Program-made: the position numbers and the translations under genes
Part shown: positions 14,158-23,883 of the stretch, in pieces
How positions within the stretch are numbered: position 1 is the first letter of the stretch
Layout of the letters: the number at the start of each line of letters is the position of its first letter
Notes under the pieces: generated by a model
Databases searched by the model: none
Told to the model about the DNA's origin: nothing
The model's input: only the letters and a program-made list of their open reading frames with translations
IMG/VR virus record: IMGVR_UViG_2537562195_000010
Source: a virus
Lineage: Duplodnaviria > Heunggongvirae > Uroviricota > Caudoviricetes
Length of the DNA: 53,150 bases
Direction: 5' to 3' (one strand)

Positions 14158-14520
14158 ATGCTCATAGAGTTGGTTTTACCTTACCCGCCGACGGTGAACA
14201 CTTACTGGCGACGCCGTGGCAGCACATATTTTGTATCAAAAGCCGGGGAGCGTTATCGCCGGGCAGTGGCGCTTATTGTTCGCCAGCAGCGACTGAAATT
14301 AAGCCTGTCCGGACGGCTGGCAATAAAAATTATTGCAGAGCCACCGGATAAGCGCCGCCGTGACCTGGACAATATTCTGAAAGCACCGCTGGATGCGCTG
14401 ACGCACGCGGGGTTGTTAATGGACGATGAGCAGTTTGATGAAATCAATATTGTACGTGGCAAGCCAGTATCTGGTGGACGGCTGGAGATAAGAATTACAG
14501 AGGTGGGTGTGCATGAATAA
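14158..14520 (+). CDS. rusA: Crossover junction endodeoxyribonuclease RusA (Holliday junction resolvase)
   Basis: 120 aa; 'PDKRRRDLDNILKAPLDALTHAGLLMDDEQ...GGRLEIRITE' matches the RusA catalytic region. Confidence 0.9.
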   Translation: MLIELVLPYPPTVNTYWRRRGSTYFVSKAGERYRRAVALIVRQQRLKLSLSGRLAIKIIAEPPDKRRRDLDNILKAPLDALTHAGLLMDDEQFDEINIVRGKPVSGGRLEIRITEVGVHE

Positions 14521-15178
14521 CCAGTATTTACAGTTTGTTCGTGAGCAACTCATGATTGCCACTGCGGATCTTAGTGGGTCGACAAAAGGCCAGCTGGAAG
14601 TCTGGCAGGAAAATGCCCTGTTCGATACAGGGCGTTGCAGACGCAAAAAAATTCGTTACCGCGATGAGGTAACCGGAAAAATGATCACGCGGGATAATCC
14701 CCCGATCCCGGGTAAACAATCACTGGCGAAAGGCTCATCAATTGCCCTGGTCAGTCCGGTTGAGTTTTCGACATCATCATGGCGACGCGCCGTTCTGTCT
14801 CTTGAAGAACATCATAAAGCCTGGCTGCTGTGGTGTTACAGCGGTAGCATTTGCTGGGAGCATCAGATCGCGATAACGCAGTGGGCGTGGACTGAATTTA
14901 ATGCTCAATCCGGTACCAGAAAAATTGCAGGAAAAACTCTGGTGCGCCTGAAGACGTTGATCTGGTTGGCGGCGCAGGCGGTAAAAGCTGAGCTTTTTGG
15001 TGGGGAAGGTTACGAATACCAGGAACTGGCGTTACTGGTGGGAGTAACAACCAAAAACTGGTCCAAGACATTTACTGGTCACTGGGTTGCAATGAAACAC
15101 ATTTTTCATCGGCTGGATAGTGAAGCTTTATTGTTGGTGGAGGGAACACGTTCAAAACAAAAGGCGGCATTTTCATAG
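14513..15178 (+). CDS. Late-gene antitermination protein Q
   Basis: 221 aa; phage antiterminator Q family by sequence character and position (after rusA, before the late promoter/terminator); ATG 14513 with GAGGTG RBS, overlapping the rusA stop. Confidence 0.8.
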   Translation: MNNQYLQFVREQLMIATADLSGSTKGQLEVWQENALFDTGRCRRKKIRYRDEVTGKMITRDNPPIPGKQSLAKGSSIALVSPVEFSTSSWRRAVLSLEEHHKAWLLWCYSGSICWEHQIAITQWAWTEFNAQSGTRKIAGKTLVRLKTLIWLAAQAVKAELFGGEGYEYQELALLVGVTTKNWSKTFTGHWVAMKHIFHRLDSEALLLVEGTRSKQKAAFS

Positions 15179-16145: not shown

Positions 16146-16318
16146 AATTTCCTGAGTAATAAAGATTTTACTGCCCGGCATTGAGCGGCTTTTTTATGCC
16201 AGAAAAATGGTGCAGTACATAAAATGTGCAGGTGGTTATTAATACCGGTCTTTCAGCTTGCTGGCTTTTTTGACAAGAGTTATTGGTGTGTCACGTTAAC
16301 CGGAAAAGGGAAAAAGAC

Positions 16319-16516
16319 ATGCTGAAACAGCAGGATATGACAGAAACCGCCAGAGCAGTTTTTAATGAATTAAGTGCCACCGAACCGGCGACAGTCGGGG
16401 AGATTGCACAGAATACGTACCTTTCACGCGAACGCTGCCAGCTAATACTGACCCAGCTTGTTATGGCGGGTCTGGCAGACTATCAGTTTGGTTGTTACAG
16501 ACGCCTTCAGTCCTGA
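16319..16516 (+). CDS. Small putative DNA-binding protein (HTH-like)
   Basis: 66 aa from 'MLKQQDMTETARAVFNELSATEPATVGEIAQNTYLSRERCQLILTQL'; ends inside a terminator hairpin. Confidence 0.45.
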   Translation: MLKQQDMTETARAVFNELSATEPATVGEIAQNTYLSRERCQLILTQLVMAGLADYQFGCYRRLQS

Positions 16517-16528
16517 AGGCTTTTTTAT
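16503..16528 (+). terminator. Rho-independent terminator
   Basis: 'GCCTTCAG-TC-CTGAAGGC' stem followed by TTTTTTATTT. Confidence 0.5.
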
Positions 16529-16667
16529 TTGTGGTAAATGGGCGGCTGGTGGGTGTTAGGGGCACTCACCAGCCATCTGCTCATGCGTTGGGGTCACAAG
16601 CAAACCTCAGGCCCATCTGCTTTGCGCAAAAGCGGTATGAGCCTATCAGAGACAGGCTTAATGATCC

Positions 16668-17726
16668 ATGTTTAATACTGTAAAAATATCCAGTTGTGAG
16701 TTAATCAACGCCGACTGCCTGGAATTTATCCGGTCGTTACCCGAAAATTCTGTTGACCTGATAGTCACGGACCCGCCGTACTTTAAAGTGAAGCCTGAGG
16801 GCTGGGATAACCAGTGGACGGGTGATGAGGATTACCTGAAATGGCTGGACCAGTGTCTGGCGCAGTTCTGGCGGGTGCTGAAACCTGCCGGAAGTCTTTA
16901 CCTGTTCCGTGGCCATCGCCTGGCGTCTGACATTGAAATCATGATGCGTGAACGCTTCAGTGTGCTGAACCATATTATCTGGGCGAAGCCGTCCGGACGC
17001 TGGAACGGGTGCAACAAGGAAAGCCTGAGGGCGTATTTCCCCGCCACAGAGCGCATTCTGTTCGCGGAACACTATCAGGGGCCGTATCGCCCGAAAGATG
17101 ATGGCTATGAGGCGAAGGGCAGGGCACTGAAACAGCATGTGATGGCTCCGCTGATTGCTTACTTTCGTGATGCGCGTGCTGCCCTGGGGATAACGGCAAA
17201 ACAGATAGTGGATGCCACAGGAAAGAAAAACATGGTGTCGCACTGGTTCAGTGCCAGTCAGTGGCAGCTACCGAACGAAAGCGATTATCTGAAATTACAG
17301 GCGCTGTTTGCCCGGGTGGCAGAAGAGAAGCATCAGCGGGGTGAACTGGAAAAGCCCCACCACCAGCTGCTGGAGACGTATACTTCACTGAACCGGCAGT
17401 ATGCGGAACTGCAGAGTGAATATAAGCATCTGCGGCGGTATTTTGGCGTGACGGCGCAGGTGCCGTACACGGATGTGTGGACGCATAAACCGGTGCAGTA
17501 CTATCCCGGGAAACATCCGTGCGAAAAACCGGCAGAAATGCTGCAGCAGATAATCAGTGCGAGCAGTCGTCCGGGTGACCTGGTTGCAGATTTCTTCATG
17601 GGGTCGGGTTCGACAGTCAAAGCCGCGATGGCGCTGGGGCGTCGTGCAACTGGCGTTGAGCTGGAGACTGAACGTTTTGAGCAGACGGTCAGGGAAGTAC
17701 AGGATTTAGTCAGTCAGAATGGATGA
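16668..17726 (+). CDS. DNA methyltransferase (beta-class N6-adenine/N4-cytosine, DPPY motif)
   Basis: 352 aa; motif IV 'DLIVTDPPY' near the N-terminus and motif I 'DFFMGSGST' near the C-terminus (beta-class order); no adjacent restriction endonuclease, so likely an orphan phage methylase. Confidence 0.85.
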   Translation: MFNTVKISSCELINADCLEFIRSLPENSVDLIVTDPPYFKVKPEGWDNQWTGDEDYLKWLDQCLAQFWRVLKPAGSLYLFRGHRLASDIEIMMRERFSVLNHIIWAKPSGRWNGCNKESLRAYFPATERILFAEHYQGPYRPKDDGYEAKGRALKQHVMAPLIAYFRDARAALGITAKQIVDATGKKNMVSHWFSASQWQLPNESDYLKLQALFARVAEEKHQRGELEKPHHQLLETYTSLNRQYAELQSEYKHLRRYFGVTAQVPYTDVWTHKPVQYYPGKHPCEKPAEMLQQIISASSRPGDLVADFFMGSGSTVKAAMALGRRATGVELETERFEQTVREVQDLVSQNG

Positions 17727-17766
17727 TATTGCAGGATTAGTTACGTACCGTTATTATCATGCGCCC

Positions 17767-17842
17767 GGCCCTTTAGCTCAGTGGTGAGAGCGAGCGACTC
17801 ATAATCGCCAGGTCGCTGGTTCAAATCCAGCAAGGGCCACCA
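17767..17842 (+). tRNA. tRNA with CAU anticodon (Met or lysidine-modified Ile2)
   Basis: Hand-folded cloverleaf: acceptor GGCCCTT/AAGGGCC, D-arm GCTC...GAGC, anticodon loop CTCATAA, T-arm GCTGG-TTCAAAT-CCAGC, encoded CCA. Confidence 0.85.
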
Positions 17843-17850
17843 TATCCATA

Positions 17851-17927
17851 CCGCCATTAGCTCATCGGGATAGAGCGCCAGCCTTCGAAGCTGGCTGCGC
17901 GGGGTTCGAGTCCTCGATGGCGGTCCA
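17851..17927 (+). tRNA. tRNA-Arg (anticodon UCG)
   Basis: Hand-folded cloverleaf: acceptor CCGCCAT/ATGGCGG, anticodon stem CCAGC/GCTGG with loop CTTCGAA, T-loop TTCGAGT, encoded CCA. Confidence 0.85.
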
Positions 17928-18205
17928 TTATCAGCATTATGCGTTGTTGGTTCTGATGAGTGAATCATTGTCTTTTGAGCAACAGGCTATCATATAAGAT
18001 AGCCTCAGACTTCCTTGTTTATTCTCGCCGGATGCTTCGTAGATATTTGCAGGCATCTGTATGCAGGGGTATTATTGCGGCATATATCATCCGGAAAAAT
18101 AAAAACTACATGCTGATCCGGAGATGATAGTTACAAGTCCTCCCGGATCCCGCATATTTACTATATTTTATAGATAATTGTTCTTGTTAATATGGAGATG
18201 GATAA

Positions 18206-18634
18206 ATGTATTGCCGTGCTGTACCGGTTCTTGTTTTGATATTAGCCAGTCTGACAACTGGCTGCACAAAAGATGTATCGACAAATAATTATGATGCTTC
18301 TCTGTATCACTCAGATAAATTAATAAAGTCACAAAATTTGAGCTCATCGGAACGTAGCCCTGATGCCAGTGAAGAAATCCGGCAGTATGCCATTCAGGTC
18401 AGGAAAGCCATAGAAGAACAGTTAAAGGATGCGAGTAAGTATTCAGGAAAAGAGTGTTCACTGAGAATGTATATGGCCCCGAATGGTCTTCTGCTACAGG
18501 TTAAAAGAGAAAGCGGTGATCCCGATTTATGTCGTGAAGCGATGAATGCAGTAAAGAATGCTGATATACCATCACCACCGTCTTCAGGAGTATATAAAGC
18601 ATTTAGAAATGGCGTGCTGGATTTTAAACTCTGA
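18206..18634 (+). CDS. Lipoprotein with TolA C-terminal (domain III)-like domain
   Basis: 142 aa; signal peptide with lipobox-like 'LTTGC'; C-terminal 'YAIQVRKAIEEQLKDASKYSGKECSLRMYMAPNGLLLQVKRESGDPDLCREAMNAVKNADIPSPPSSGVYKAFRNGVLDFKL' closely parallels the E. coli TolA C-terminus as I recall it (...GDPALC...KIPKPPSQAVYEVFKNAPLDFKP); AT-rich moron. Confidence 0.7.
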   Translation: MYCRAVPVLVLILASLTTGCTKDVSTNNYDASLYHSDKLIKSQNLSSSERSPDASEEIRQYAIQVRKAIEEQLKDASKYSGKECSLRMYMAPNGLLLQVKRESGDPDLCREAMNAVKNADIPSPPSSGVYKAFRNGVLDFKL

Positions 18635-18700
18635 CAGGGGGGAGAAGATTTTCTCCTGTCCTGATGATTTTGGGGCGCTGGAAAGATATTGTGCTGTGAA

Positions 18701-18950
18701 GTGTTAAATCCCTCACAATTCAGTAAGTTGACAGTTGCCTGTCAGACTGAGCATTTGTTAAAAAAATTTCGCATGGTGAATCCCCCTGTGCGGAGGGGCG
18801 ACTGGTGAACGGTATGATCTCTTTGATGATCGTAAGCGAGAATACGCGGGTTTGGTGTCACCGGGCTGAACTCACCGGGAGGCACCCGGCACCATGCTCA
18901 TGGTGATACAGAAATGCGGCTTCAGCCCCTCTCCGGAGGGGCTTTCTTAT
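18701..18950 (+). repeat. Structured repeat unit A (family of five; possible sRNA gene or promoter-terminator cassette)
   Basis: Contains the conserved blocks 'GTTAAATCCCTCACA', 'TTGTTAAAAAAA', hairpin 'GGTGAATCCCCCTGTGCGGAGGGGC', hairpin 'CACCGGGAGGCACCCGGCACC' and terminator 'GCCCCTC-TCCG-GAGGGGC-TTTCTT' (18925-18948). Confidence 0.7.
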
Positions 18951-19110
18951 GGACAAAAAAAGCCCGCGCTGGGAGACGCGGGCGGCAAGGAATAAACAAT
19001 AAAACGTGAAGTAATACTTCAACTGGCGAATAATACCCGACAGTAATCACTCTGCGCAATAGCGTGGCCTTTTTCGAATTGCGGGCTGTAGTCTCCCTTC
19101 TGCTGGGTGT

Positions 19111-19266
19111 CCTGGTTGCAGATTTCTTCATGGGGTAGGGTTCGGCAGTTAAAGCAGCGATGGCGCTGGGGCGTCGTGCAACTGGCGTTGAGCTGGATAC
19201 CGGGCGTTTTGAACAGACTGCGCAGGAAATCAGGGATGTATTTAGCGGGAGCGGTTTGCAGAAGTA
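19111..19266 (+). pseudogene. Remnant of a DNA methyltransferase 3' end (duplicate of the C-terminus of the 16668..17726 gene)
   Basis: Near-identical to 17578-17726 ('CCTGGTTGCAGATTTCTTCATGGGG...GGCGTCGTGCAACTGGCGTTGAGCTGGA...') but with an in-frame TAG ('FFMG*') and no upstream gene body. Confidence 0.6.
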
Positions 19267-19330
19267 ATCTCCCAAAATGCCATTTTTGGAATATACTGGT
19301 ATTAAGTCTTTTTGCTAAGGTTAATTCAAA

Positions 19331-20056
19331 ATGGATGTTGCCTGCTCTGTGGTCCTGATTCGCTATCCGATAGATATTTTTCTTGAAAAAGAAAAAGTTT
19401 CACTCGATGCCGGAAGTGTTATGCTTGTTGCCAGAAATATAAGAGGGCTTTTCTGTGCTTATGCCGACAGAGTGAAAATGGCAGATATAAGTAACAGCGT
19501 CGTCAATCAGTATCTGGAAAGGGAGTGTGAACTGACGGAGTATACACCGACAAAAATTCCTCTTTATTTGATGTCTGATATTTACAATACGGAACTGGCG
19601 GAGGCTTTAATAACCCAGCATAGTGAATCCAGTGATACTTTGAAGGATTTCTCTGTTATAACCGCATTTTCATGTATCTCCTTATTTGCAACAGACAGAC
19701 GTCTGCCATTATTTTTGTCCGGTGCTGTAAATAATATCAGCTGTAAAGTAAGGGCTATAATTCAGACCGACATATCGGCAGGCTGGATGCTTGGTGTGAT
19801 TGCATTACAATTGCATATGAGCGAAAGCTTGTTGAAGCGAAAACTTAAGGATGAAGGTTATAGCTTTAGTCGGTTGTTGCTGGAGGAGCGAATGCGTGTT
19901 GCTGTTAATCTTGTATGTTTCCAGCGAGAGTGTGGACAAGCGATAGCGGAAAAATGTGGTTACTCAAGTAAGTCCTACTTCATTTCTGTATTTCACCAGT
20001 ATTATGGTGCACCACCTGAGAGCTATGCATATTTGCAGAAAGCAGACGTTATCTGA
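19331..20056 (+). CDS. AraC/XylS-family transcriptional regulator (prophage-encoded)
   Basis: 241 aa; C-terminal double-HTH region '...LHMSESLLKRKLKDEGYSFSRLLLEERMRVAVNLV...IAEKCGYSSKSYFISVFHQYYGAPP' typical of AraC-type regulators; AT-rich island. Confidence 0.75.
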   Translation: MDVACSVVLIRYPIDIFLEKEKVSLDAGSVMLVARNIRGLFCAYADRVKMADISNSVVNQYLERECELTEYTPTKIPLYLMSDIYNTELAEALITQHSESSDTLKDFSVITAFSCISLFATDRRLPLFLSGAVNNISCKVRAIIQTDISAGWMLGVIALQLHMSESLLKRKLKDEGYSFSRLLLEERMRVAVNLVCFQRECGQAIAEKCGYSSKSYFISVFHQYYGAPPESYAYLQKADVI

Positions 20057-20144
20057 TGTTTTTCATCAGGCATATATTGATTGACTGTATTAGATATAGT
20101 CTGAATGTGTTCAGCATAAAAAGTTATAATCATTTGGTGTTTGC

Positions 20145-20423
20145 GTGAATATTGATGAGAAAATCAGATGTAGCCAACTGTTACAGCGTATTGAAGCCGT
20201 CAATGTGGAACGAACAAAGGTCTTCAGTCGTCTGACAGTTTTATTTTGTACCCCTGATCGACGTTCAGGTCAGGAGATGGTTCTTCTGGATGTAGATGCA
20301 CTTCGGAACGTCTGTGAGGAGTTCACCGCGGCTAATTCGGAGTTACTGAGTCTTGTTCAGGAGTACAACAGAATTGCAGGTAGTAACGGTTTTGATGAAA
20401 TCAAAATTATATCCCGTGGATAA
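20145..20423 (+). CDS. Hypothetical protein downstream of the AraC-family regulator
   Basis: 92 aa ORF with GTG start; AT-rich; no family recognised. Confidence 0.4.
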   Translation: MNIDEKIRCSQLLQRIEAVNVERTKVFSRLTVLFCTPDRRSGQEMVLLDVDALRNVCEEFTAANSELLSLVQEYNRIAGSNGFDEIKIISRG

Positions 20424-20671
20424 AACATATCCTGTATATTTATGTTGTTACATACAGGCGCTTTTAGTATCTGCCGCACGGCAGTTGTACTTCAGAATAA
20501 GATGCTTTTGTGACTGGTGGTGTTGTATCTGGGGTTAGCCAGGAGGCAGGTTCAGAGAGTCCGGTGGTAATTATGTGTATGCAGTGGTTGTTGCTGTACC
20601 GTGGGCAAGTTCTGGAACTGGCTTCGTCCATTGTAGATGATTGTTAGCTGGATATCAGTTACCTCATGGAA

Positions 20672-20907
20672 ATGTTAAATGACTCACAATTCGGTTGATG
20701 GGCTATTGTCTGATCGATGGAAGTCTTGTAAAAACGAGCCAGCATAGTGAATCCCCCTGTGCGGAGGGGCGTCTGACATGGTCTCCATAGCGATGGTCAC
20801 AATACGCAGATTCAGTAGTCAGGCTGAATCTACCGGGAGGCACCCGGCACTATGCTGCTTATGGTGTATACATAGCGATCGGCCCCTCTCCGGAGGGGCT
20901 TTTTTTG
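20672..20907 (+). repeat. Structured repeat unit B
   Basis: Same conserved blocks as unit A ('GTTAAATGACTCACA', 'AGTGAATCCCCCTGTGCGGAGGGGC', 'TACCGGGAGGCACCCGGCAC', terminator 'GGCCCCTCTCCGGAGGGGCTTTTTTT'). Confidence 0.7.
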
Positions 20908-20929
20908 TGCGGGAAAAGGCTGTGTTGTT

Positions 20930-21175
20930 AAGTGTTAAATTCCTCACAGTTCAGATGGTTGATGCTTGCCTGTCTGAGGGGGAGTTGTTAAAAAAGTTCT
21001 GCATGGTGAATCCCCCTGTGCGGAGGGGCGACTGGTATGATTTGCATCTTTTCTGTTGTAGGCAATGCAAACGCGGGTTCAGGGACACCAGACTGGACTC
21101 ACCGGGAGGCACCCGGCACCATGTTCATGATGATACAGATACGCAGTGTCAGCCCCTCTCCTGAGGGGCTTTTTT
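20930..21175 (+). repeat. Structured repeat unit C
   Basis: Same conserved blocks; terminator 'AGCCCCTCTCCTGAGGGGCTTTTTT' at 21151-21175; variable central segment. Confidence 0.7.
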
Positions 21176-21202
21176 ATGCAGGAAAAACGCTGTGTTGTGA
21201 AA

Positions 21203-21436
21203 TGTTAAATTCCTCACAGTTCAGATGGTTGATGCTTGCCTGTCTTACGGGGAGTTGTTAAAAAAGTTCTGCATGGTGAATCCCCCTGAGCGGAGGGGCA
21301 TATCAGCGCAGGTGTTTCTACTCTATCCTTTCTGTGCGGGTTCAGGTGCTGATACTGAACTCACCGGGAGGCACCCGGCATCATGCATATGGTTAACAGA
21401 CAAGTAGCGAAGCCCCTCTCCGGAGGGGCTTTTTTA
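21203..21436 (+). repeat. Structured repeat unit D
   Basis: Same conserved blocks; terminator at 21411-21436. Confidence 0.7.
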
Positions 21437-21462
21437 TGCAGGGAAAAGGCTGTGTTGTGAAA

Positions 21463-21690
21463 TGTTAAATTCCTCACAATTCATGAGGTTGATGATTGTC
21501 TGATTGATGAGGAGTTTGTTAAAAAAAACGGGCATGGTGAATCCCCCTGTGCGGAGGGGTGATATCGTATCATTTCCTGTGTGGCCGACTGATATCACGG
21601 ACATTTGTTCACCGGGAGGCACCCGGCACCATGCAGTATACAGAGATTAGGCATACATCCAGGCTCCTCATCGCAGGAGCCTTTTTACAT
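21463..21690 (+). repeat. Structured repeat unit E
   Basis: Same conserved 5' blocks; central segment forms its own inverted repeat ('GTGATATCG...CGACTGATATCAC'); different terminator hairpin 'GGCTCCT-CATCGC-AGGAGCC-TTTTTA'. Confidence 0.65.
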
Positions 21691-21918
21691 GTAAAAAAAA
21701 CCGCTCCTGGGAAGAGCGGTTGGCAAGGAAGCAAGGAATAAATAACAAAACGTGAAGTAATTTATTCAGCACCCTAATAATACCTTAGAGTAATCACCTT
21801 GCGCAACTGTAAGGGCGTATTTCTTTTTTGCGGGCTGTTTTTCTGTGTGACTTTTGTGTTTCCGGAGGTCAGCCCGTGCCTTCTCTGACTCAGAACATTA
21901 TCCCGGCCGGGAGGATTC

Positions 21919-23883
21919 ATGGCATTTAAACACTACGATGTGGTCAGGGCGGCATCGCCGTCAGACCTTGCTGAACGACTGACACAAAAACTGAAGGAGG
22001 GCTGGCAGCCATTTGGCAGTCCGGTGGCCATCACGCCTTATACCCTGATGCAGGCCATTGCGGCGGAAGGTGATGTCACCACACCAGTGGCGGTGACCGG
22101 TAATGAGGGTAAGGCGGTGGCTGTCAGTGCCACCAGCGACCCGGAGTATTACTTTGTTGTGGTTCTGGCAGGGCAGTCAAATGGCATGTCGTATGGTGAA
22201 GGTCTTCCGCTGCCGGAGACATATGACCGTCCGGAGCCGCGCATTAAGCAGCTGGCGCGCCGCAGTACGGTGACACCGGGCGGTGCAGCATGCAAATATA
22301 ACGACATCATTCCGGCGGACCATTGTCTGCATGATGTGCAGGACATGAGCCGCCTTAACCATCCGAAAGCGGACCTGTCAAAGGGGCAGTACGGAACCGT
22401 GGGGCAGGGGCTGCATATTGCCAAAAAATTGCTGCCGTTTATACCGGCGAATGCGGGCATTCTGCTGGTTCCGTGCTGTCGTGGTGGTTCAGCGTTCACC
22501 ACCGGAGCTGATGGCACATACAGTGACGCGAGTGGTGCCTCGGAGAATTCAACCCGCTGGGGTGTTGACAAGCCGCTGTACAAGGACCTTATCGGTCGAA
22601 CAAAAGCAGCACTGAAGAAGAACCCGAAAAATGTGCTGTTTGCCGTGGTGTGGATGCAGGGGGAATTTGATTTTGGCGGTACGCCGGTAAATCACGCAGC
22701 ACAGTTTGGTGCGCTGGTTGATAAATTCCGTGCAGACCTGACGGATATGGCCGGTCAGTGCGTTGGTGGCTCTGCTGGCGGTGTTCCCTGGATATGTGGA
22801 GATACGACGTATTTCTGGAAGCAGAAGAACGAATCCACGTACCAGACGGTGTACGGCAGCTATAAAAACAAAACGGAAAAGAATATCCATTTCGTACCGT
22901 TCATGACGGATGAGAACGGGGTGAATGTGCCGACGAACAAACCGGAAGAAGACCCGGACATTCCGGGTATCGGGTATTACGGTTCGAAATGGCGTGACAG
23001 CTCAGCCACCTGGACGTCACAGGACAGGGCGAGCCATTTCAGCACCTGGGCACGCCGGGGGATTATTTCCGACCGTCTGGCAACGGCGATTCTGGTGCAC
23101 GCCGGGAGAACCGCTGAATTCATTACCGGAAAACAGCCTGATATGGTGAGGCCCACCGTACCTTCCGGTGAAGGTCCGGAGAGAGAGGCGGAAGCCCCGG
23201 CCAGTAAGCGTACCCTGATGAGTCTGCTGGCATCCGGCGAAGACCTGGCATCACAGGGCTGGCGCTATTATCACAAACCGGCGGGCGGAGACAGTGTTAA
23301 CAAAAACATTGCTGAAGCGGTGGTCAGTGATGCGGGGGCTACGGGAGGTAAGGCTCTGCAACTGAACAAACCGGAAAACCACATCTGGTTTCTGGAGCAT
23401 GATGCAGCCGGACAGGGGGCGGAGTTACTGAAGAAGGGCGGACGTGTGAGCGTACGGTTTAAGTTGCCGGGTTCACTGGTGCCGAATCAGTTTGCCCTGG
23501 GCATTTACTGGCAGTTGTCGTCCCTGCCGGAGGGGGTGACGCTGTCAGGAGAAGGTAACGATATGCTGATGTCCTTCTTTCTGCAGACGGATACGACGAA
23601 CCTGAACGCGATGCATCACAGGAAGCCGAATGCGAAGCTGGATACATTCGGGGTCTTTGATAACGGATGGCACACGCTGGCTTTTGAGTTTGCCGGAAAC
23701 AACAGCATTCAGGTGACACCAGTACTGGATGAGAAACGGGGAGCGGCGTTCACACTGGTGAAGTCACCGGCATCGGGGGTGGCGGACAAACTGCAACTGA
23801 CCGATATATCAAAATCGGCGACGTATACGCTGCTGATTGACAGCATTGCGGTGGAAGTGAACAGCACAGACACTGCGGCATGA
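21919..23883 (+). CDS. nanS: NanS-p-like sialate O-acetylesterase (DUF1737 N-terminus plus SASA/DUF303 esterase domain)
   Basis: 654 aa; N-terminal 'MAFKHYDVVRAASPSDLAERLTQKLKEGW' and esterase region 'VVVLAGQSNGMSYGEG...AVVWMQGEFD' match the NanS-p family encoded downstream of stx in Shiga-toxin phages. Confidence 0.8.
   Translation: MAFKHYDVVRAASPSDLAERLTQKLKEGWQPFGSPVAITPYTLMQAIAAEGDVTTPVAVTGNEGKAVAVSATSDPEYYFVVVLAGQSNGMSYGEGLPLPETYDRPEPRIKQLARRSTVTPGGAACKYNDIIPADHCLHDVQDMSRLNHPKADLSKGQYGTVGQGLHIAKKLLPFIPANAGILLVPCCRGGSAFTTGADGTYSDASGASENSTRWGVDKPLYKDLIGRTKAALKKNPKNVLFAVVWMQGEFDFGGTPVNHAAQFGALVDKFRADLTDMAGQCVGGSAGGVPWICGDTTYFWKQKNESTYQTVYGSYKNKTEKNIHFVPFMTDENGVNVPTNKPEEDPDIPGIGYYGSKWRDSSATWTSQDRASHFSTWARRGIISDRLATAILVHAGRTAEFITGKQPDMVRPTVPSGEGPEREAEAPASKRTLMSLLASGEDLASQGWRYYHKPAGGDSVNKNIAEAVVSDAGATGGKALQLNKPENHIWFLEHDAAGQGAELLKKGGRVSVRFKLPGSLVPNQFALGIYWQLSSLPEGVTLSGEGNDMLMSFFLQTDTTNLNAMHHRKPNAKLDTFGVFDNGWHTLAFEFAGNNSIQVTPVLDEKRGAAFTLVKSPASGVADKLQLTDISKSATYTLLIDSIAVEVNSTDTAA

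Follow-up and report, generated by a model that had tools for sequence, protein, structure and literature searches.

The stretch of DNA analysed here, called the window throughout (53,150 nucleotides, IMG/VR virus record IMGVR_UViG_2537562195_000010), contains a lambdoid prophage adjoining ompW, and across 12.4 kb the window is 99.5% identical to E. coli 2013C-4282 (NZ_CP027579). A short piece of a DNA methyltransferase gene, hereafter the stub, lies in the cargo region of the late operon, with Q on one side and the lysis genes on the other. Two gene arrangements meet at its left edge, A to the left and B to the right, and these letters are used below for the arrangements, for the phages that carry them and for the two methylase alleles. 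The features of the region are the following.

14507-15178: Q; two small open reading frames come next, before the resident methylase
16668-17726, plus strand: resident intact DNA methyltransferase gene, allele A, 352 codons (Pfam PF01555, N6_N4_Mtase)
17767-17927, plus strand: two tRNA genes, one with a CAT anticodon and one Arg-TCG (ARAGORN, Rfam tRNA, RefSeq)
18206-18634, plus strand: gene for a TolA C-terminal-domain protein of 142 aa, A-type cargo (Pfam PF06519, TolA, E = 3.9e-23)
18742-18954, plus strand: STnc100-family sRNA gene, the single A-type copy (Rfam RF02076, 172 bits, full length)
18955-19104, plus strand: truncated pre-nanS spacer, its first ~150 nt, left of the joint
19103-19105, no strand: recombination joint between the pre-nanS spacer and methylase nt 906 (three-way alignment)
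19105-19267, plus strand: methylase stub (pseudogene), codons 303-355 and stop codon of allele B (translation, SMBL comparison, PGAP)
19293-20580, plus strand: AraC island, 1288 bp, GC 0.41 (presence or absence among joint carriers)
19331-20056, plus strand: gene for an AraC-type regulator (Pfam HTH_18/HTH_AraC)
20145-20423: open reading frame of 92 aa in the AraC island, with no Pfam match
20713-21692, plus strand: four tandem STnc100-family sRNA genes, B-type block (Rfam RF02076, 119-141 bits each)
21693-21918, plus strand: full-length pre-nanS spacer, B-type block (alignments; collinear with SMBL)
21919-23883, plus strand: nanS-p-type SASA carbohydrate esterase gene (Pfam DUF1737, SASA and DUF6645; 'SASA family carbohydrate esterase' in RefSeq)

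The product of the resident methylase matches PF01555 over residues 29-340 (E = 1.4e-42) and is named DNA-methyltransferase in a near-identical RefSeq record. The tRNA with the CAT anticodon is a tRNA-Ile in RefSeq, and both tRNAs are part of the A-type block; together with the tolA-like gene they are also found in A-type prophages that are free of the stub, for example EC2. The tRNA genes number two here, and likewise only two in the A-type relatives with tolA, while the related Stx and UTI89 prophages examined have a third, tRNA-Arg(TCT). The TolA-like protein has an N-terminal signal or lipobox-like sequence (LTTGC), and its gene occupies the slot that stx has in Stx phages; it is speculation that such a phage-borne TolA-III decoy could influence the entry of colicins or filamentous phages.

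Full-length STnc100-family genes are present five times in the window (119-172 bits), once after tolA and four times in tandem, the tandem array having a period of about 260-270 nt (repeat families D1-D4). STnc100 and its relative PasD have been described as prophage sRNAs associated with esterase genes (bioRxiv 10.64898/2026.05.13.724894). At the start of each pre-nanS spacer the minus strand shows a strong GC hairpin followed by a T-run (18962-18983 and 21699-21721), and since these hairpins come directly after a plus-strand STnc100 terminator, the two sites are back-to-back and terminator-like.

Results

The stub comprises the last 53 codons and the stop codon of an N6/N4 DNA-methyltransferase gene (163 nt, 19105-19267). 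A preliminary description of this DNA had reported a nearly identical repeat, about 155 bp long and starting at 19111, of the 3' end of the resident methylase. The repeat is real, and the similarity begins already at 19105. It is neither short nor of low identity, as the alignment of the window with itself is far beyond chance (BLAST, 17573-17686 vs 19105-19218, 91.2% over 114 nt, E = 6e-40). A local alignment of 19105-19245 with 17573-17713 has 123 of 143 positions identical (86%), with a score of 99 vs 11.7 +/- 2.2 for shuffled sequences, and a repeat search of the window pairs the resident 3' end with the stub at 84% over 141 nt. However, 'nearly identical' is too strong, as the tail diverges: the first ~110 nt of the stub are near the resident gene, whereas the final ~50 nt differ, as does the C-terminus of the product (GSGLQK-stop vs SQNG-stop). 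The in-frame TAG that had been described is indeed present, at 19136-19138, where it replaces Ser313 in the numbering of the intact allele, and the frame terminates at TAA 19265-19267. The absence of a gene body stands as well, with no methylase sequence and no start upstream of 19105. Three substitutions in the stub, 19137 A, 19145 G and 19150 T, are absent from every intact allele found.

A functional methylase of the PF01555 type has the full domain with its catalytic DPPY/F region and an uninterrupted frame with a start codon. In the intact proteins residues 29-340 make up the Pfam domain; the stub has lost 85% of it, together with the DPPY motif, which in the resident gene is found around codon 35. 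What it retains is only the C-terminal FxGxG region, in a frame that has no N-terminus and is broken by the TAG. With so much of the domain missing and a stop codon present, the stub has no function of its own. The same diagnosis at the same coordinates has been reached by PGAP, which labels the sequence 'DNA methyltransferase; internal stop; incomplete; missing N-terminus', the corresponding PGAP/RefSeq pseudogenes being C6996_RS26980 (NZ_CP027579.1) and JFX52_RS28340 (NZ_CP075697.1), equivalent to window 19106-19267. Whereas that annotation is silent on the origin of the fragment, the genome comparisons presented here identify its probable intact source allele and the joint.

An intact gene of the kind from which the stub could derive is present in E. 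coli SMBL, a goat isolate (NZ_CP061914). Its methylase measures 1068 bp (355 codons) and has the same AraC-type gene 63 nt downstream, in a B-type arrangement without the tRNAs and without tolA. The match between the two begins at nt 906 of the SMBL gene, which is window 19105, and the fragment therefore corresponds to codons 303-355 and the stop codon of allele B. From 19105 to 21043 the window is collinear with SMBL at 97.9% identity, and the similarity goes onward through nanS-p at 95%; between 19157 and 19316, which covers the stub tail and the spacer to the AraC gene, there are 0 differences. While 24 of 61 aligned positions in the tail, in addition to indels, differ from the resident gene, 0 of 70 differ from SMBL. 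The stub had been taken for an orphaned duplicate of the resident gene, but with a tail that is 100% identical to the SMBL allele it is the remnant of a different allele, B, and not a copy of its neighbour. The distance from the AraC gene to nanS-p is 1333 nt in SMBL vs 1862 nt in the window; from this distance SMBL has approximately two STnc100 units fewer, and the copy number of these genes varies among relatives.

SMBL is the sole intact B-type among 5426 complete E. coli genomes. A protein search with the 54-aa B tail, in which the matches are only short fragments at contig edges, revealed the intact B-type in at least five further genomes (draft contigs), with the methylase body, intact Ser and Thr codons and AraC downstream: five of the matches lead into intact-type sequence and then AraC, and one (P0009) into a converted stub that is treated below. 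Of the 89 complete genomes with the B tail, none has an intact B-type allele that is not accompanied by AraC. A search of the GTDB representative genomes for an intact allele with the stub-specific variants (pattern GGTTCGGCAGTTAAAGCAGCGATGG) gave 0 matches; the 11 matches of the same pattern in IMG/VR are all stubs with the same joint, none of them an intact allele. Since no intact allele was found to have 19137 A, 19145 G and 19150 T, the variants in the first 52 nt of the stub would reflect either decay or an unsampled allele as the source.

The sequence immediately left of the stub is the beginning of a pre-nanS spacer. Homology of 18960-19110 to 21700-21870 had been proposed, and the two regions do align (18956-19089 vs 21693-21838, score 56 vs 9.7 +/- 1.5 for shuffles), though just at 72% and with gaps. 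In ~900 E. coli genomes the spacer that precedes nanS-p is ~94% identical to the truncated one, 18955-19104, and there runs on from CTTCTGCC directly to ATTGTCCTG and then into nanS-p. I composed a synthetic A-type query from tolA, STnc100, the truncated spacer with its normal continuation, and the beginning of nanS-p; at least 18 complete genomes match this query without interruption, at ~92%. The A-type EC2 has the order Q, small open reading frame, methylase, tRNA, tRNA, tolA, 526 nt, nanS-p, and is 95.7% identical to window 16185-18973. Judging from these alignments, both arrangements that meet at 19104/19105 exist on their own elsewhere. With each block found alone in other genomes, the proposal that a tRNA, TolA-like and STnc100 block has been joined in mosaic fashion to a block of AraC gene, STnc100 array and nanS-p is borne out.

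The joint itself was defined by a three-way alignment of the window with an uninterrupted pre-nanS spacer and the intact methylase of SMBL, in which collinearity breaks exactly at 19104/19105. At this place the intact spacer reads CTCTTCTGCC followed by ATTGTCCTGTAAC, the intact methylase B reads GCAGTCGTCC followed by GGGTGACCTGGTT, and most carriers of the joint read CCCTTCTGCC followed by GGGTG(T/G)CCTGGTT, so that the end of the pre-nanS part, CTTCTGC(C), meets the GGGTG of methylase nt 906. At position 19104 most relatives have C; the T of the window is a later substitution. At the crossover the parental sequences have the 2-nt CC alone in common, with a patchy 6/10 similarity just past it. 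Homology ends abruptly inside an intact gene (methylase nt 906), extended parental homology is absent at the joint, and both flanking arrangements are uninterrupted elsewhere (at least 18 genomes of the A-type; SMBL and 5 draft contigs of the B-type). Because the interior of a spacer meets the interior of a methylase with only CC in common, the joint is one of illegitimate recombination at the level of microhomology, and not of recombination from repeat to repeat. The earlier suggestion that repeated modules recombined does not account for the joint; homologous exchange through the stub belongs to a later stage. That the methylase 3' end and the pre-nanS spacer are each present twice is the product of the event, not its substrate.

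As a side observation, position 19110, five positions inside the joint, occurs in three states: the window and most other carriers have T, the AraC-less type described below has G, and the draft genome L028 and all intact alleles have A. The T makes the local sequence, TGTCCTG, the same as the pre-nanS sequence lost at the joint.

In 88 of the 5426 complete E. coli genomes the joint is present, 79 times with the AraC gene and 9 times without, the 88 carriers being inferred from full-length BLAST coverage across the joint and not from one-by-one inspection. Of the IMG/VR contigs with the stub-specific variants, 11 of 11 show both this joint, unchanged, and the TAG, and the same joint is seen in L003, L010 and L028, so that it is identical in every carrier inspected. 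Because the same joint recurs in 88 genomes and 11 IMG/VR contigs, these data point to a single origin. The listed carriers are mostly Shiga-toxin-producing E. coli and isolates from cattle and food. The deposited phage genomes in INPHARED gave only generic STnc100 and pre-nanS matches and no instance of the joint.

Nine complete genomes, STEC2018-607 among them, have the same joint and stub without window 19293-20580. In this AraC-less type the stop codon of the stub and a 25 nt spacer are followed directly by the sequence of window 20581 onward. The island has clean ends, with a 2-nt AT ambiguity, and a GC content of 0.41 vs 0.50-0.55 in its surroundings, and the sequence to its right is confined to the 89 genomes with the B tail. 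Because nine joint carriers are without the 1288-bp island, the stub and the island are separable, and the island is not tied to the joint as had been assumed. At the equivalent place an O157:H7 prophage encodes an AraC-type protein with 58% amino acid identity to that of the window, and the prophage AraC/XylS regulators PatE, PsrA and PsrB are known in O157:H7 (PMC10877973). A crude consensus scan detected no plus-strand sigma-70-like site in 18076-19331, from tolA to the AraC gene, which is a weak negative.

Within the stub, the window differs from SMBL at 6 positions in 19105-19156 and at none in 19157-19316, whereas it differs from the AraC-less type at 2 positions in 19105-19180 and at 8 in 19181-19292, and these opposite patterns are significant (Fisher p = 0.007). 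Because the differences from SMBL and from the AraC-less type fall in opposite parts, the window stub is a recombinant itself, with a crossover in 19157-19179. Its left part, TAG included, is common to the AraC-less hybrids, and its right part and the AraC island are SMBL-like. Either an SMBL-like phage brought the island into an older AraC-less hybrid, with the stub as the left homology arm, or, alternatively, the AraC-less forms took their right part from another phage.

The draft genome L028 (GCA_000647455.1) has the same joint, then sequence identical to the window resident gene from 19105 through 19213, and then the B tail. The TAG is absent there, and an open reading frame of 67 aa (P0009) extends from the pre-nanS spacer into the methylase tail (L028:1386-1589). 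On this pattern the L028 stub looks like a case of gene conversion by a resident-type methylase. In the AraC-less lineage the stub and the resident methylase of the same genome share two variants, GCTAYAGGC (STEC2018-607, L003:5075-5100 vs L003:3540-3570), and at this site the window has GCAACTGGC in both its copies. This hints that in each lineage the two repeats have evolved in concert. The 114-nt direct repeats could also recombine with each other, by which 1532 bp would be deleted and an intact methylase rebuilt beside the AraC gene.

Discussion

The stub is very probably a non-functional 3' remnant of methylase allele B that stems from one illegitimate, microhomology-level recombination of two lambdoid genomes. 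With the anatomy of the locus, both parental arrangements, the sequence of the joint and its shared descent at hand, I infer the direction and order of events as follows. The cargo regions between Q and the lysis genes of two related phage genomes would have been misaligned by ~1.5 kb. Parent A would have had methylase-A, two tRNAs, the tolA-like gene, STnc100, the pre-nanS spacer and nanS-p, and parent B methylase-B followed by the STnc100 array, the pre-nanS spacer and nanS-p, with the AraC-type gene probably already present after methylase-B at the original event. Breaks inside the pre-nanS spacer of A and at nt 906 of the methylase of B would have been joined across CC, giving a product in which the two cargo blocks follow one another, separated by a 163-nt methylase tail, and since then the stub would have served only as a patch of homology. 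The recombination could have occurred in trans between co-resident phages, or as a deletion in cis between tandem prophages, and the data fit both routes. Records of the type 'Stx2 ... PPompW' of ~90 kb (LC567818, LC567820, LC567824, LC567834 and LC567841) have two query matches each, as if two lambdoid prophages stood in tandem at ompW, in whose neighbourhood the present prophage also lies; they are a lead for the cis-deletion.

Two observations speak against this explanation, namely that no exact donor for its first 52 nt occurs in the GTDB representatives or IMG/VR, and that the intact B-type is uncommon, with a single case among 5426 complete genomes. The intact B-type could itself be a secondary product, of a deletion between 17573-17686 and 19105-19218. 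The events would then have run in reverse: the hybrid would be older, the form with intact methylase-B and AraC would have arisen from it when homologous recombination of the direct repeats removed the DNA between them, and the stub would come from an older, unsampled donor. I consider this unlikely, even though SMBL is resident-type up to 19156 and stub-type from 19157, as expected of a crossover in 19157-19197, its methylase differs from the window resident at only 2 of 383 positions over 17283-17665, hybrids relate to the intact B-type as 88 to 1 in complete genomes, and L028 shows exchange of sequence between the two repeats. However, the Z570 allele is as near to the window resident gene across 17283-17665 as SMBL, so the similarity of SMBL is non-specific, and the Q region of SMBL is different. 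Moreover, as the B tail has a methylase C-terminus that is homologous and in frame, an intact B gene must have existed regardless, and the reverse direction, if right, would leave the identity of the stub unchanged.

A local duplication, in which the stub was copied from the resident 3' end by replication slippage or segmental duplication and then diverged, would explain the 91% identity of its first 114 nt to the resident gene and the stretch 19157-19197, which is identical to the resident copy. It is nevertheless hardly credible, as the resident gene is not the best match along the entire stub: the final ~70 nt of the stub and the spacer after them are unlike the resident (24/61 and indels) and 100% identical to SMBL, with which the stub remains collinear for 1.9 kb downstream. 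Insertion of the 1532-bp block 17573-19104 or of the AraC island by a transposase or integrase, the repeat being a long target duplication, deserves equally little credence. The clean ends of the island, its GC content of 0.41 and its presence/absence polymorphism are what such a cassette might show, but neither block has inverted repeats beside it, 16668-21919 contains no transposase or integrase open reading frame, and the content of 17573-19104 is the normal A-type gene order. A 'target duplication' of 114-160 nt with unlike tails, in place of the short duplication of a transposon, IS or integron, fits no known transposition mechanism. It is only a little less improbable that the stub was kept by selection as a promoter, a 5' leader or a small open reading frame for the AraC-type gene. 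The spacing and sequence from stub to AraC are perfectly conserved between the window and SMBL, and L028 has its 67-aa open reading frame across the joint; yet nine genomes retain the stub without AraC, the consensus scan of 18076-19331 detected no plus-strand sigma-70-like site, and the stop codon and stub-specific substitutions are consistent with decay.

Lambdoid mosaicism is characterised by rare non-homologous joints, later homologous reshuffling, and low-GC cargo genes in the late operon. Its mosaic joints and 'morons' are reportedly due to illegitimate recombination that is then followed by selection. The present case is alike in that homology ends abruptly in a gene or spacer, that the flanking modules are found separately, and that low-GC cargo (AraC-type, TolA-like) occupies the part of the late operon from Q to the lysis genes. 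There is no essential difference, except that here both parents and later derivatives can be read in public genomes. The stub is an ordinary scar of illegitimate recombination in phage mosaicism, already annotated as a pseudogene.

The backbone and position are also those of the cargo site of Stx-converting phages (Q, methylase, tRNAs, stxAB, nanS-p), and the resident methylase, the tRNAs, the pre-nanS spacer and nanS-p are 84-94% identical to their counterparts in Stx1 and Stx2 phages. Unlike in those phages there is no stx here; the slot holds the TolA-like gene, STnc100 sRNAs and the AraC-type regulator, and it is doubled. Homology-facilitated illegitimate recombination is said to have been described for DNA uptake in transformation, and resembles the present joint in that one side can anchor in near-identical methylase or Q sequence while the other joins at 2 nt. 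However, it is a mechanism of transformation, and for recombination between phages it may serve as a formal analogy only.

Because nearly every lambdoid prophage in polylysogenic E. coli has a ~95%-identical methylase gene, the stub might act as a portable homology arm, by which cargo, i.e. the AraC-type regulator and the STnc100 array, is swapped or deleted by RecA or Red with co-resident prophages. I regard this as a possible but rather doubtful reading. If true, the crossover in 19157-19179 of the window, the AraC-less variants and the converted stub of L028 would be traces of such traffic. In handling these genomes some caution is advisable, as a direct repeat of 114 nt can give rise to deletions or assembly breaks.

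Conclusion

The stub is of little importance in itself and opens no new question. It does provide a clean, documented case of cargo stacking, in which one non-homologous joint placed two alternative blocks in series, with homologous reshuffling after. It may be of modest use for tracking the prophage cargo of Shiga-toxin-producing E. coli, such as AraC-type regulators like Psr and PatE, sRNAs of the STnc100/PasD family and TolA-like proteins.
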